Positions 48,626-54,344 of a stretch of DNA of 64,000 nucleotides are shown here, one piece after another. The DNA comes from an uncultured bacterium (lineage in GTDB: Bacteria; Fermentibacterota; Fermentibacteria; Fermentibacterales; Fermentibacteraceae): the NCBI GenBank assembly GCA_964603785.1, contig CAZRWD010000001.1, positions 485,638 through 549,637 on the forward strand. The letters are read 5' to 3'. The notes below the pieces were generated by a model. It did no database searches. It worked only from the letters and a program-made list of their open reading frames with translations, and was not told the origin of the DNA. How positions within the stretch are numbered: the stretch's first letter is position 1; every line of letters begins with the position of its first letter. The position numbers and the translations under genes were made by a program.

Positions 48626-49543
48626 GTGGTGGAGGTCACGCCCTCCTGCAATCTCTCGTGCCGCTTCTGCTGCAACCCCTGGCACATCTCCTCCGCCCCG
48701 CCCCGGCCGCGTCCCGGGCTCGCGAGCGAACTGGTGGCCTCCCTCGGGAGGCTCTCCCCTTCGGGCATCACCCTATCCGGAGGCGAGCCCCTCCTCCGCG
48801 ACGACCTCGCCGGGATCGTGCGGACGGCGCACGATGCCGCATCGCGAGTCATACTCGCAACGAACGGCACCCTCCTGACGCGGGATCTTGCCGTGCAGCT
48901 CGCGGATGCCGGCCTCGGAGGCTTCCAGATCACGATCCCCACGTGCGACGGGCTCCTGTTCGGGCGCCTCTGCGGAGCCGGGGATCCGGTCCCGGTCAGG
49001 AGCGCGATCGCATCCGCGGCATCCACGGGGCTCCCCGTCTCGGCGGGTTTCCCCGTCACATCAGCCAACTGGCGTGAGGCGGCGGCCGTCCTCAGGACGT
49101 CGGTCGCCTTCGGAGCCGGATCGTTCATGTTGCTGAGGCTCGCCTCCGGGGGCAGGGCTTCGAAACCGGGATTCGACCTGTTCCCCACCCCGGACCAGCT
49201 CGGGGCGGCCGCCATGGACGCCTGCGAGGCGGGAGCGGCCCTGGGGATAACCGTCTATGCCGGGATCACGATGGAGCAATGCTCCTTCGACCTGCCGCCC
49301 GGCATGGCGGACGAGGGCTGTACCGGAGCCGTTGTGAAGTGGGCCGTCGATCCCTGGGGAAGGCTGAGACCCTGCGAGCAGTCGCCGGTCATCCTGGGCG
49401 ATCTGCTGGAGGAGGGTTTCGAAACGCTGTCCGTCTGCGCCGGGGCCGAATCCTTCAGGCTCTGGCGGAGAGGCGGCGGGTGCGGCTCCTGCATGTCGGC
49501 GGAAGCCTGCCGGGGCGGCTGCAGGTATGTGCCTCAGGGCTAG
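48626..49543 (+). CDS. Radical SAM / SPASM-domain enzyme (peptide- or protein-modifying maturase family), start uncertain
   Basis: CNLSCRFCCNPW (CxxxCxxC) and GITLSGGEPLL (GGE motif). C-terminal Cys cluster CGSCMSAEACRGGC (SPASM). No ATG in frame near the N-terminus; GTG at 48626/48629 assumed. Confidence 0.8.
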   Translation: MVEVTPSCNLSCRFCCNPWHISSAPPRPRPGLASELVASLGRLSPSGITLSGGEPLLRDDLAGIVRTAHDAASRVILATNGTLLTRDLAVQLADAGLGGFQITIPTCDGLLFGRLCGAGDPVPVRSAIASAASTGLPVSAGFPVTSANWREAAAVLRTSVAFGAGSFMLLRLASGGRASKPGFDLFPTPDQLGAAAMDACEAGAALGITVYAGITMEQCSFDLPPGMADEGCTGAVVKWAVDPWGRLRPCEQSPVILGDLLEEGFETLSVCAGAESFRLWRRGGGCGSCMSAEACRGGCRYVPQG

Positions 49544-50205
49544 CCGAAGACCTCGCGCCGCCGATCCTCAAGGAAGGCCACGAGACCGTCGACGCCTTCG
49601 CCGGTGAGTGCGCTCGCCCGTATCACCGCCACATCCGCGTTCATGCTCCGGCATTCCTCCTCCGCGCGATCCATGTCGAAGGGGATGTGCGGCGCGAGGT
49701 CCACCTTGTTCAGGATCATGAGGTCGATCCGGCTGAAGAGCGACGGATACTTGAGGACCTTGTCGTCACCCTCCGGAAGAGACAGGATCCCCGCCCTGAG
49801 GTGCTCGCCGAGGTCGTAGGAGCTCGGGCAGATGAGGTTGCCGACGTTCTCGATCACGAGGAACCTGTGGCCTCCGGACGGCAGGTCCATCGAGGCCAGG
49901 GCCCTCCCGACCGAGACGGCATCCAGGTGGCACGCGCCGCCTGTCTCTATCTGGACGGCCTTGACCCCCGCGGCCTTCACCCTGTCGGCATCCCTGCTAG
50001 TCTTGACGTCACCCTCGACCACCGCGAGATCGTTCCCGAGCCTGCGGGCCAGGGCCTCCAGAAGAGTGGTCTTGCCCGCGCCTGGCGAGCTGATGACGTT
50101 GACTGCGAAGAGGCCCAGGCCGGCGAACACGTCCCTGTTCCTCGCGGCCGCCTCGTCGTTGGCCTGCATGACGCTCCGCCTGAGATCCACCCGTGTTCTC
50201 CTCAT
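49540..50205 (-). CDS. hypB: Hydrogenase nickel-incorporation GTPase HypB
   Basis: SSPGAGKTTLLE (P-loop), CHLDA metal-binding motif and NKVDL. Confidence 0.9.
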   Translation of the reverse strand: MRRTRVDLRRSVMQANDEAAARNRDVFAGLGLFAVNVISSPGAGKTTLLEALARRLGNDLAVVEGDVKTSRDADRVKAAGVKAVQIETGGACHLDAVSVGRALASMDLPSGGHRFLVIENVGNLICPSSYDLGEHLRAGILSLPEGDDKVLKYPSLFSRIDLMILNKVDLAPHIPFDMDRAEEECRSMNADVAVIRASALTGEGVDGLVAFLEDRRREVFG

Positions 50206-50717
50206 GCCTTCGATCCACCTCCGCGACAGGCCTCGCAGGTCCGGCCGGACCTCTCCTCCCCCATCTCCTCGAGCAGCAGGTCCACGATGACCGGCAGCGC
50301 CTCCTCGACCTCGGGGGAGAGCTTCTCCTCCAGCATCCTGGGGGGCCTCACGGTGACCCCCAGGATCTCCCAGTCGGGGAAGGATGAGGTCGCACGGAGT
50401 CTTTCGAGGGCGTGCATAACCGATCCTATGTCCGTCTGGTGGAATGACGGGGCGAACGCCCTCGGTGCGCTCCTTCCCCTGGTCACCATGCCCGGCGGCT
50501 CTCCCGCCACGGCGTCGACGAATATGAAGCGCCCGGCGGATCCGATCATGTCCGACACCGCCAGGAGGTCACCCTCCAGGGTGGTCAGGAGCACGCCGTC
50601 CGGCCCGGATCCGCCGAGCCTCTCTCTCAGCATCTCGACCGCCCGAACCCCGGCTCCGTCGTCTCCGGCGAGCGTGTTGCCGATGCCCACGATCGCCAGG
50701 CGGGCACGGGGGGGCAT
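50202..50717 (-). CDS. [NiFe] hydrogenase maturation endopeptidase (HycI/HyaD family)
   Basis: LAIVGIGNTLAGDDGAGVRAVEML N-terminus and the conserved FVDAV motif. ATGA overlap with hypB. Confidence 0.8.
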   Translation of the reverse strand: MPPRARLAIVGIGNTLAGDDGAGVRAVEMLRERLGGSGPDGVLLTTLEGDLLAVSDMIGSAGRFIFVDAVAGEPPGMVTRGRSAPRAFAPSFHQTDIGSVMHALERLRATSSFPDWEILGVTVRPPRMLEEKLSPEVEEALPVIVDLLLEEMGEERSGRTCEACRGGGSKA

Positions 50718-50718
50718 C

Positions 50719-52838: not shown

Positions 52839-52874
52839 GTCATCAACTCCCGGGTCGTCGTCTCCATTTCCCGC

Positions 52875-53792
52875 CTACTTCGCACCTGAAGCCCACTCGC
52901 GCAGTTCCACGGTGGGCTTCCTGTACATCACGGGCGAGGAGAGCGCGTAGGCGTAGAAGGTCTTCGCTTCATCCTGCAGGTACTGCCTGATCTCCGCCTC
53001 GTCGATTCCGGTCAGCATGCCCATCCTCCGTGCGATCATGCTCCGTATGTCGAGGTGCGGCTCCCTGATCAGATCGATCGAGGGTCCGGCGCATCCGGCG
53101 CAGGCCACGCCCTTGTTGGGGCACTGGGCCTTGCACCTGTCGAGGGTCACCGAGCCCATGCAGACCACACCCTGGCTCAGCAGGCACGTCTCCGGGTCCG
53201 GTGCCGACACGGCTCCCCTGTTCAGCTTCACGCCCTCGGTCTTCTTCATGCGGCGGCCGCATTCTGAGCACACGGTCTTGCCCGAGAGCGGCACGCTCTT
53301 CGCACCCAGGAGATGTCTAAGCCCGGCTGCTATGAAGAACGGGTGGGGCGGGCAGCCGGGAAGGTACATGTCCACATCCACGACCTCGTCGATGGGGATC
53401 ACGCTCTCCTCGAGCAGCGGGGCTTCTGTCGGCGAGGTCATGCCCTTCGCATCGGTGGGGTTCCCGCCGTAGGTCTTGGCCAGTATCGACTCGCGCCCGT
53501 GAAGCCAGCCCAGCCCCGAAGGGCCTCCGTAGACCGCGCACGTGCCGAAGGCCACTATCTTGCCGCAGCTCTCGCGCATCTTCAGGAGGGCATGCCTGTC
53601 GTGCTCGCTCCTGACAGCCCCCTCGACGATCCCCACGTCCGCCTTGGGGTAGCCCTTCTCGTCCATGAGAACCGGGACCCTCACGAACTCGACGTCGTCC
53701 ACGAGGTTCAGGAGCTTCTCATGGAGGTCGACCACTGCCACGTGGCATCCCGAACAACCGGAGAGCCACTCGGTGGATACTTTCGCCTTCAC
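52875..53792 (-). CDS. [NiFe] hydrogenase small subunit (group 3-like)
   Basis: GTG start after GGAGG: (M)KAKVSTEWLSGCSGCHVAVVDL, then FGTCAVYGG, LPGCPP and the distal cluster CSECGRRMKK...CMGSVTLDRCKAQCPNKGVACAGC. The 131-codon upstream extension in the track is implausible. Confidence 0.85.
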   Translation of the reverse strand: MKAKVSTEWLSGCSGCHVAVVDLHEKLLNLVDDVEFVRVPVLMDEKGYPKADVGIVEGAVRSEHDRHALLKMRESCGKIVAFGTCAVYGGPSGLGWLHGRESILAKTYGGNPTDAKGMTSPTEAPLLEESVIPIDEVVDVDMYLPGCPPHPFFIAAGLRHLLGAKSVPLSGKTVCSECGRRMKKTEGVKLNRGAVSAPDPETCLLSQGVVCMGSVTLDRCKAQCPNKGVACAGCAGPSIDLIREPHLDIRSMIARRMGMLTGIDEAEIRQYLQDEAKTFYAYALSSPVMYRKPTVELREWASGAK

Positions 53793-54292
53793 TGGGCAGC
53801 CTCCTCGATGATCAGCTCCTTGAGACAGCCGTTGGGACCAGCGTGGAGGATCTCGAGATGAACCGTCCTGCCCGGCATCACGCTCTCCATCGCTCCGGCG
53901 AAGACCCCGTGGGCCATGTAGCAGAGCGACTGCTTCTGTTCGTGCGCGTAGCGGAACAGCGCATTCCGGACCATGCAGGTGCTGAACGCGAGCCTCATCA
54001 CCTTCTTGCCGTCCCGCTCCTCCACAAGCTTTTCCGATTCGCCCTGGAAGGGCTTGAAGTCCCAGACTATCCCCCGCTTCGCCAGGGCGTCCGAGAGGAT
54101 CCCCACAGCCTTCTCGACGTCGTCGGTCTGCTGCGTGCCCTCCACGGCCTCCTTGCCGAACTTCTTCCCCGCCAGCATGCATATCGAGAGGCTGCTCTTC
54201 CCGAGATTCAGCTCCGAAGCATGGGCCAGGGCGCCGAGCAGGTAGGCCACACCCTGGAAACGGGACAGATCAGTGTCTTCCGTCTTGACCAT
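53789..54292 (-). CDS. V4R-domain protein (4-vinyl reductase/TRAPP-Bet3-like fold)
   Basis: C-terminal ...LAFSTCMVRNALF....QSLCYMAHGVFAGAMESV....LEILHAGPNGCLKELI V4R Cys pattern. GTGA/ATGA-type overlap with the small-subunit start. Confidence 0.5.
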   Translation of the reverse strand: MVKTEDTDLSRFQGVAYLLGALAHASELNLGKSSLSICMLAGKKFGKEAVEGTQQTDDVEKAVGILSDALAKRGIVWDFKPFQGESEKLVEERDGKKVMRLAFSTCMVRNALFRYAHEQKQSLCYMAHGVFAGAMESVMPGRTVHLEILHAGPNGCLKELIIEEAAQ

Positions 54293-54344
54293 CCGGTCCA
54301 CCTCTCACCCTCGCTTCGACCCCATCCTGCGCCAGAATTCGACC

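Follow-up and report, generated by a model that had tools for sequence, protein, structure and literature searches.

Hydrogenases are sorted into groups 1 to 4 and their subgroups, and inferring metabolism from metagenomic data commonly relies on this scheme. The group 2b regulatory hydrogenases (HoxBC/HupUV, together with HoxJ-HoxA) are group 2 enzymes whose large subunit lacks a C-terminal extension and whose small subunit is bound by a dedicated kinase. The V4R/Bet3(TRAPPC3)/H-NOX-like fold class is a two-layer alpha/beta architecture in which N-terminal helices are packed on a four-stranded antiparallel sheet. Proteins of the V4R/TRAPPC3 type dimerise, bind zinc via cysteines and possess ligand cavities (PMC10933270), the V4R-domain cysteines of MsvR act as a redox switch (PMC3729527), and genes for an Fe-S (iron-sulphur) protein and two V4R proteins recur together as a module, as in the pre-PcyA/BBAG clusters and Synechocystis slr0144-slr0149 (PMC10151467). 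The linkage of MglB, PATAN and MglA is also known (PMC4316618). The present analysis concerns a [NiFe]-hydrogenase gene cassette in the window, i.e. the whole 64,000-nucleotide stretch analysed (assembly GCA_964603785.1, contig CAZRWD010000001.1, positions 485,638 to 549,637), from an uncultured member of the Fermentibacteraceae. The cassette consists of X1 (a stand-alone protein of predicted V4R fold), the hydrogenase small and large subunits, fd-X2 (a ferredoxin domain fused to a second predicted V4R-fold domain, X2) and a maturation endopeptidase. It very probably represents a distinct, conserved cytoplasmic group 3 [NiFe]-hydrogenase subtype with V4R-fold partner subunits. No paper linking a V4R or Roadblock protein to a hydrogenase was found, work on the [NiFe] enzymes of Fermentibacteria included; literature coverage was incomplete, so that this is absence of evidence only.

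The cassette was searched for in one genome per GTDB species, and 71 loci were found, all of them in metagenome-assembled genomes (MAGs). They span Fermentibacteria, Eisenbacteria, Acidobacteriota, Methylomirabilota, Fibrobacterota and Desulfuromonadales/Geobacter, that is, at least six bacterial phyla. The order X1, small subunit, large subunit, fd-X2, protease is unchanged in every one of these loci wherever the contig is long enough. X1 and fd-X2, the partner genes, are never missing, and the endopeptidase gene is kept after fd-X2 in 61 loci. The HypB gene, adjacent in the window, lies nearby in 7 of the 71 and is not a conserved member of the cassette. Across phyla X1 shows 55-83% identity and is as conserved as the catalytic subunits. 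The recurrence of one gene order across 71 independent genomes is far beyond chance.

Some divergent loci bear on the origin of fd-X2. In a sister lineage (L132, GCA_050258455.1), the order Roadblock, X1, small and large subunit is followed by a separate 90-amino-acid ferredoxin gene, a separate 150-amino-acid V4R/ATC-hydrolase-like gene and the protease. Since ferredoxin and V4R-like genes are separate in this lineage, fd-X2 is the product of fusing two ancestral partners. NACHT/ATPase_2-TPR genes come after the L132 cassette. A Geobacter sp. MAG carries, besides a standard cassette, a second locus (L105, positions 3883-8286 of contig 51) with X1-like (40% identity), small-subunit (46%) and large-subunit (44%) genes and a partial fd-X2-like gene. 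On another contig (L136, ENA ERZ27283184 k119_600278), a 722-amino-acid TCAD9 (ternary conflict-system) protein, P0279, ends in an X1-like domain and is adjoined by PIN-domain genes, and a protease-X1-small-subunit cassette lies 2 kb downstream of it.

In the window, the cassette is part of a run of eleven closely packed genes on the minus strand, from 58085 to 49540, with overlapping start and stop codons in several. In the order of transcription they are as follows.

57636-58085, minus strand: Roadblock/LC7 protein no. 1 (Pfam Robl_LC7 8.1e-18; true start probably internal, core about 115 amino acids)
57049-57558, minus strand: Roadblock/LC7 protein no. 2, MglB-like (Pfam Robl_LC7 2.8e-10; NCBIfam MglB 2.6e-21, under cut-off)
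56487-57068, minus strand: MglA-like small GTPase of the Ras/Arf family (Pfam Arf 1.8e-5, just over cut-off; Ras 5.4e-4; P-loop GPGMSGKTT)
55748-56446, minus strand: PATAN (DUF4388) domain protein (Pfam PF14332 1.1e-15)
54345-55745, minus strand: DnaA-family AAA+ ATPase (Pfam Bac_DnaA 5.5e-21; TIGR00362 2.8e-41, under cut-off)
53789-54292, minus strand: X1, stand-alone protein of predicted V4R/Bet3(TRAPPC3) fold, 167 amino acids (model-based fold matches; no Pfam or NCBIfam match over threshold)
52875-53792, minus strand: [NiFe]-hydrogenase small subunit, 305 amino acids (Oxidored_q6, PF01058, 2.7e-27)
51441-52838, minus strand: [NiFe]-hydrogenase large subunit, 465 amino acids (NiFeSe_Hases, PF00374, 1.5e-27; RICGVC and DPCLACATH)
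50719-51444, minus strand: fd-X2, N-terminal 2x[4Fe-4S] ferredoxin domain (Fer4 families) and second domain of predicted V4R/Bet3 fold (model)
50202-50717, minus strand: hydrogenase maturation endopeptidase (TIGR00072 2.3e-21)
49540-50205, minus strand: HypB nickel-insertion GTPase (TIGR00073 1.7e-70)

The source genome (2.44 Mb, 67% GC, 99% complete) has Candidatus Fermentibacteria MAGs as its closest relatives, and DNA identical to the stretch occurs in sludge and biogas-fermenter samples. A longer GTG start of X1 at 54301 is not used by its homologs. The GTG start of the small subunit overlaps the X1 stop codon (GTGA), and the TTG start of fd-X2 overlaps the TGA of the large subunit (TTGA). 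An earlier note, made from the sequence alone, had described for 49540-54301 a hydrogenase flanked by two V4R-domain proteins, one of them fused to a ferredoxin. Its gene content and coordinates were borne out, as were the two Ni-Fe motifs, the length of the large subunit, the TTGA overlap, the maturation protease and HypB, and the lack of any MvhD, HoxEFU or diaphorase gene within the operon. The same ferredoxin-V4R fusion was to be sought beside [NiFe] hydrogenases of other genomes, and the 71 species-representative loci answer that suggestion. A promoter and terminator scan of 49000-59200 gave nothing above chance, so that a single operon is neither supported nor split by it. The stretch is present in four sludge RNA libraries (contig-only data) at a flat depth of about 8 over 15 kb, the neighbouring genes of either strand included, and these data do not allow any claim of expression or of an operon transcript.

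The large subunit has the Ni-Fe ligand motifs of group 3 enzymes (L1 RICGVC, L2 DPCLACATH), matches PF00374 over the cut-off and keeps a C-terminal extension for endopeptidase processing. Its best matches among PDB chains are 7t2r_D (1e-84, 288 bits), MvhA 5odc_F (9e-79, 269 bits) and HoxH 5xf9_D (2e-73, 251 bits), all of them group 3 enzymes, and it stands at roughly equal distance from NiFe-HydABCSL, MvhA and HoxH. The small subunit is of the NuoB/Oxidored_q6 type, with VhuG as its best NCBIfam match (2.2e-66, under cut-off). Its N-terminus, MKAKVSTEWLSGCSGCH, has no twin-arginine motif and hence no Tat signal. Twelve cysteines of this subunit are invariant (13, 16, 85, 147, 175, 178, 203, 211, 220, 224, 231, 234), a number consistent with three [4Fe-4S] clusters, and the ferredoxin domain of fd-X2 has eight invariant cysteines forming 2x[4Fe-4S]. 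Judged by these motifs, the group 3-type catalytic core is complete, with five canonical [4Fe-4S] sites in proteins that could be arranged in series.

The placement of the enzyme among group 3 hydrogenases was examined by searching 24 cassette-bearing genomes with the large subunit, the other group 3 paralogs there being labelled by gene context (MvhD-adjacent, HoxF-adjacent, 3b-like). The cassette large subunits share 54-75% identity (520-790 bits) with one another, whereas the other group 3 paralogs in these genomes reach at most 45% and 380 bits. In a maximum-likelihood tree (quick search, LG+G4, rooted on the 3b-like paralogs), they form one clade with an SH-aLRT support of 100. The divergent Geobacter-MAG cassette L105 is sister to it (support 98), and both fall outside a joint 3c and 3d (MvhD- and HoxF-linked) clade (support 95), with the 3b-like paralogs as outgroup. 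The MvhD-adjacent clade itself has a support of 100%. The tree holds bacterial paralogs only, with archaeal 3a/3c sequences, the HydDB set and NiFe-HydABCSL outside its sampling, and this tempers the assignment of a separate subtype. None of the curated NCBIfam equivalogs was reached: the best, VhuA, scored 266 bits against a cut-off of 800, VhuG scored 224 against 450, and those for groups 3b and 3a also stayed under their cut-offs (ShyA 197 against 700, HydA 152 against 880, FrhA 179 against 392). Neither the MvhD nor the heterodisulfide reductase (Hdr) partner of group 3c is present in the operon. As regards group 3d, the cassette contains no NuoF-like gene and lies outside the HoxF-adjacent clade. 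The Hox-type enzyme of this genome is a separate locus and is 33-35% identical to the cassette enzyme; it lies on contig 8 (1-8296) and comprises a 482-amino-acid large subunit, a 181-amino-acid small subunit and a 595-amino-acid HoxF-like gene. Membership in group 2b is contradicted by the group 3 affinities, the C-terminal extension and the endopeptidase, and a kinase gene is found upstream in some lineages only; on these grounds the enzyme is not a group 2b member but may work like one.

Whether the partner proteins X1 and X2 are V4R proteins, as had been proposed, depends on the level at which the question is put. The V4R profile PF02830 scored 12 bits on X1 (E 0.55, cut-off 31) and found no match on the X2 domain, where solely a sub-threshold PF14196 ATC_hydrolase match (5e-4) was seen. 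The earlier note had named a lack of significant profile similarity as one of the findings that would refute it, and at the profile level this is what was found. A sequence search of the X1 profile against PDB chains also gave no meaningful match. Both proteins belong to sizeable, well-conserved families: 269 homologs of X1 (the best 120 of the 269 at 64-87% identity) and 311 of fd-X2 (the best 120 of the 311 at 53-80%). A profile search of 1.84 billion representatives gave no more than 63 X1-related clusters. Among 36 distant full-length relatives of X1, a weak V4R match was seen in 6 (best 1e-4; 16-23 bits) and a weak ATC_hydrolase match in 6.

At the level of the fold the label stands. AlphaFold models built on the family alignments had a predicted local distance difference score (pLDDT) of 83.5 for X1 and 77.3 for fd-X2. 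The X1 model matched Bet3, TRAPPC3 and TPC6 with Z 10-10.8 (Bet3 10.8), the Methanocaldococcus jannaschii V4R protein MJ1460 (2oso) with Z 9.5, the phenol-sensor domains of PoxR, MopR and DmpR with Z 8.8-9.4 (PoxR/MopR 9.2-9.4), the TRAPPC3 of Thorarchaeota (Thor) with Z 8.6 and H-NOX with Z of about 7. The matches to Bet3, MJ1460, PoxR/MopR and Thor-TRAPPC3 align 104-143 residues; Foldseek gave the X1 model an E of 1.6e-4 and a probability of 1.0. The model of the X2 domain gave similar kinds of match (DmpR, Bet3, H-NOX). As far as the predicted structures can be trusted, and with the weak matches of the distant relatives pointing the same way, X1 and the X2 domain both belong to the V4R/Bet3(TRAPPC3)/H-NOX-like fold class. 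The invariant residues are Cys106, Cys124, Cys156, His117 and His128 in X1, and Cys182, Cys188, Cys200 and Cys231 in the X2 domain. A weak similarity between X1 and fd-X2 brings three cysteines into register (BLASTP 4e-5; hhalign E 0.0037, probability 9%), and the two V4R-fold domains are likely paralogs.

The genes upstream of X1 extend the cassette. Orthologs of Roadblock no. 1 (tblastn, 50-82% identity; 50-60% across phyla) were found upstream of X1 in 58 of the 71 loci, mostly 420-750 bp upstream and on the same strand, typically ending just before X1. Nine of the 13 loci that lack one are truncated upstream. As this ortholog lies just upstream across phyla, the conserved unit is made up of six genes: Roadblock, X1, small subunit, large subunit, fd-X2 and endopeptidase. 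In Fermentibacteria, Roadblock no. 2 and the GTPase, PATAN and AAA+ genes are insertions that separate Roadblock no. 1 from X1. Other neighbours were counted in the 55 loci with at least 3 kb upstream, using a domain-trimmed and coverage-filtered iterative hidden Markov model search; an unrestricted version of this search drifted to about 150 matches per family and was set aside. Of the 55 loci, 50 carry a Roadblock gene no more than 5.5 kb upstream (same strand in 46), 41 have PATAN upstream and 17 an AAA+ gene. In Desulfuromonadales, a histidine kinase and a receiver-PATAN-Roadblock fusion are found upstream of the cassette, and in Chitinivibrionales two Roadblock genes accompany it.

In the present genome, the two Roadblock genes and the PATAN gene of the hydrogenase operon are the only ones in 2.44 Mb. 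Two Robl_LC7 proteins (8e-18 and 3e-10) beside a Ras-like GTPase constitute a module of the MglA/MglB type. Roadblock no. 2 is best described as a relative of MglB rather than a proven ortholog, because it scores 76 bits against the MglB equivalog cut-off of 200. Two more MglA-like GTPase paralogs (43-46% identity) are encoded at contig positions 450993-451538 and 459179-459730, 27-35 kb before the window. The AAA+ ATPase between PATAN and X1 is lineage-specific, being found in Fermentibacteria only. It is DnaA/Hda-like, with a long acidic, Pro/Ala-rich, coiled-coil tail, and no DnaA DNA-binding domain was detected in it.

The conserved linkage of the cassette to Roadblock/PATAN/GTPase or kinase genes is thus evident from the gene neighbourhoods, and a mechanism may be proposed for it. 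Hydrogen would be split or formed at the Ni-Fe site, and electrons would pass via the three [4Fe-4S] clusters of the small subunit to the two of the ferredoxin domain. X1 and X2 would pair, as V4R/Bet3 proteins usually do (PMC10933270), and the pair would serve as a transducer in which each partner has a metal or thiol site built from cysteines, perhaps together with a ligand cavity. The co-conserved Roadblock protein would read the redox state of this pair, or else a ligand that occupies the V4R cavity, and relay it to the PATAN protein and the MglA-like GTPase or, in other phyla, to the histidine kinase and the receiver-PATAN-Roadblock fusion. In this way the availability of hydrogen would govern a switch in the cell, for instance one of polarity, motility or regulation. 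We infer that the six products act as one complex, with an electron path that continues beyond the small subunit, paired V4R domains and a sensory output. A complex prediction for small subunit, fd-X2 and X1, with X1 as the partner, scored 0.89, against 0.80 when an unrelated protein replaced the small subunit; this pair of scores is counted neither for nor against binding.

A sensory or signalling role of this kind, with hydrogen or redox state as the input to a small-GTPase switch, is put forward tentatively, as a possibility close to an even one. The earlier note had raised a sensor-coupled hydrogenase as one of two readings, and this gained support from the upstream Roadblock (58 of 71 loci), PATAN, GTPase or kinase genes, which were absent from that note; the function itself is inferred. 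Several observations speak against it. Complex formation and signalling of the cassette products are deduced from genes and predicted folds rather than directly observed. Four loci of the Sabulitectum type truly have no Roadblock gene in the 8-10 kb available upstream, and a GTPase lies nearby in only 23 of the 55 loci. By analogy with relatives of the same fold, the cysteine sites of X1 and X2 may be purely structural zinc sites. The C-terminal extension, the dedicated endopeptidase and the adjacent HypB are like those of catalytic enzymes and unlike the known group 2b sensors. Finally, the cassette enzyme is the only group 3-like hydrogenase found in several cassette genomes, and no [FeFe] or group 4 hydrogenase was detected in the present genome, which has this enzyme and the Hox-type one only; a metabolic role is for these reasons plausible or even needed.

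These last points are also what a purely metabolic explanation builds on, together with the complete set of catalytic features. Under it, the ferredoxin domain would exchange electrons with a soluble ferredoxin or another carrier, the V4R-fold pair would bind or position a small hydrophobic acceptor or donor or else scaffold the ferredoxin domain, and the Roadblock, PATAN and GTPase proteins would regulate or localise the enzyme instead of taking a signal from it. The ligand cavities of V4R/TRAPPC3 folds (PMC10933270) would suit such a role, as would the modules of an Fe-S protein and two V4R proteins found with ferredoxin-dependent bilin reductases (PMC10151467). The metabolic explanation leaves unaccounted for the Roadblock ortholog that co-evolves with the cassette and abuts it in those 58 loci across phyla, as well as the replacement of the GTPase, in some lineages, by histidine-kinase and receiver fusions, and no candidate substrate-pathway genes are conserved nearby. 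A hydrogenase of this metabolic kind is a serious alternative that nevertheless falls well short of being probable.

A further explanation would make X1 and X2 assembly or maturation chaperones, or structural zinc scaffolds, with no part in electron transfer or signalling. Small accessory proteins are common in hydrogenase operons, and the cysteine sites resemble those of V4R-fold relatives (MopR/PoxR, Thor-TRAPPC3), in which such cysteines hold structural zinc (PMC9556785, PMC10933270); their spacing in X1 and X2 is unlike that of MopR C155/C181/C189 (PMC9556785). Because homologous folds use such cysteines for zinc, the metal at these sites was left open and an extra Fe-S cluster was not adopted. 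That X2 is, in most lineages, covalently fused to a 2x[4Fe-4S] ferredoxin suggests that it belongs to the mature electron path, and X1 is both as conserved as the catalytic subunits and translationally coupled to the small subunit. The chaperone or scaffold explanation is improbable.

The weakest alternative, an ordinary group 3c (Mvh-type) enzyme whose MvhD/HdrABC partner is encoded elsewhere, is largely refuted and has very little left to recommend it: VhuA and VhuG are the best NCBIfam matches, MvhA is the second-best PDB match and an MvhD homolog with HdrABC lies 69 kb away, but this MvhD, the only one of the genome, sits in a self-contained Flx-Hdr type cluster with its own NAD(P)H input and no hydrogenase adjoining, MvhD was undetected in 11 of 30 cassette genomes (MAGs, completeness not known), the genomes that do have it carry a separate MvhA paralog beside it that is only 33-36% identical to the cassette enzyme, and the cassette lies outside the MvhD-linked clade with VhuA far under its cut-off. 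A known subgroup with partners encoded elsewhere was the outcome that the earlier note had set against its own proposal, and it found no support in view of the separate MvhD cluster, the 11 genomes and the MvhA paralogs beside MvhD. The alternative proposal of that note, a new hydrogenase subtype, gained support from the separate clade, the gap between 54-75% and at most 45% identity, the unreached equivalogs and the invariable presence of X1 and fd-X2. The Flx-Hdr type cluster itself (contig 600001-612000, about 69 kb beyond the hydrogenase) encodes a double HdrA of 1013 amino acids, MvhD/FlxD, a Fer4_22 protein, an NAD-binding/DHODB Fe-S protein, HdrC and HdrB; a DsrC-like gene and a class-V aminotransferase (cysteine-desulfurase-like) gene are divergently transcribed there.

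Other neighbours of the operon were also recorded. A radical-SAM protein with a Cys-rich C-terminus is encoded at 48512-49543 on the plus strand, convergent to HypB. In the two closest loci of Fermentibacteria, L010 and L011, homologs of it (46% identity) follow the cassette at a distance of a few kb. The Roadblock genes are immediately preceded, on the same strand, by a VanW-like gene (58182-59000, minus strand) and a gene for a signal-peptide protein without Pfam match (59054-60142, minus strand), neither of which is conserved with the cassette elsewhere. Positions 24000-35000 of the window have a GC content of 0.55-0.62 against 0.67-0.70 around them (0.61-0.79 at third codon positions, GC3) and encode large FG-GAP-repeat and FlgD-Ig-domain proteins and several open reading frames of 470-720 amino acids without Pfam match; this region may be an acquired surface-protein island.

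Taken as a whole, the probable novelty of this analysis is a multi-phylum group 3 subtype with new partner subunits and a signalling link. If it were filed by its nearest neighbour, the cassette clade would most likely be assigned to 3c or 3d, and a link to Hdr or NAD would be read into it, which is probably wrong for its carriers, including fermenters and anaerobes of digesters, sediments and soils. The combined statement, that this new subtype also provides the hydrogen or redox input to a small-GTPase switch, is possible and is offered at just under even confidence. If the linkage does mean signalling, no hydrogen sensor outside group 2 and no redox enzyme acting on a small-GTPase switch of bacteria would precede this one, and V4R/TRAPPC3-fold proteins would gain a definite biochemical setting that bears on the origin of the eukaryotic TRAPP-type GTPase regulators. 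A more specific version would be a TRAPP/Ragulator-like assembly, in which a Roadblock dimer and a Bet3/TRAPPC3-fold heterodimer are wired via the ferredoxin domain to the [NiFe]-hydrogenase, and a redox state set by hydrogen switches guanine-nucleotide exchange factor or GTPase-activating protein (GEF/GAP) activity toward the MglA-like GTPase, a hydrogen-sensing polarity or motility switch ('hydrogenotaxis'). This version is unlikely; were it true, it would be a prokaryotic precedent for the cooperation of Roadblock, TRAPPC3 and GTPase proteins.

Compared with known systems, the cassette shares with the group 3c complex MvhAGD-HdrABC (PDB 5odc) a cytoplasmic heterodimeric [NiFe] core, three small-subunit [4Fe-4S] clusters and the best similarity to curated families. 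It differs in having no MvhD or Hdr, in its partners, which are a ferredoxin domain and two predicted V4R-fold domains, and in its separate clade. Among solved structures, the large subunit matches the electron-bifurcating hydrogenase NiFe-HydABCSL of Acetomicrobium mobile (7t2r/7t30) best (1e-84), although the cassette contains no HydABC (NuoEF-like) genes and the score of 288 bits is at the level of other group 3 paralogs. The core of the cassette enzyme thus comes nearest to the Mvh and HydSL types.

On the side of the partner proteins, the pre-PcyA/BBAG clusters likewise combine an Fe-S protein with one member each of two V4R clades, a likeness in the parts list alone, since they accompany bilin reductases and globins and not a hydrogenase (PMC10151467). 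The methanogen regulator MsvR also has a V4R-fold domain with three conserved cysteines and is redox-responsive (PMC3729527), whereas it is a DNA-binding protein with no link to hydrogenase, and its cysteine spacing is 26 and 8 against 18 and 32 in X1. The TRAPP core and Ragulator are eukaryotic complexes without redox input, and the set described here is known from co-encoding and predicted folds alone; what it has in common with them and with bacterial MglA-MglB is the combination of a Roadblock (longin-like) protein, a Bet3/TRAPPC3-fold protein and a small Ras-like GTPase, which are co-encoded here (PMC10933270, PMC4316618). The closest functional parallel to the proposed model is offered by the group 2b enzymes HoxBC/HupUV. 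Both would be cytoplasmic [NiFe] enzymes tied genetically to signal transduction, with a kinase and a receiver in Desulfuromonadales, whereas the cassette enzyme belongs to group 3, has a C-terminal extension and its own endopeptidase, and would direct its output to Roadblock, PATAN and a small GTPase.

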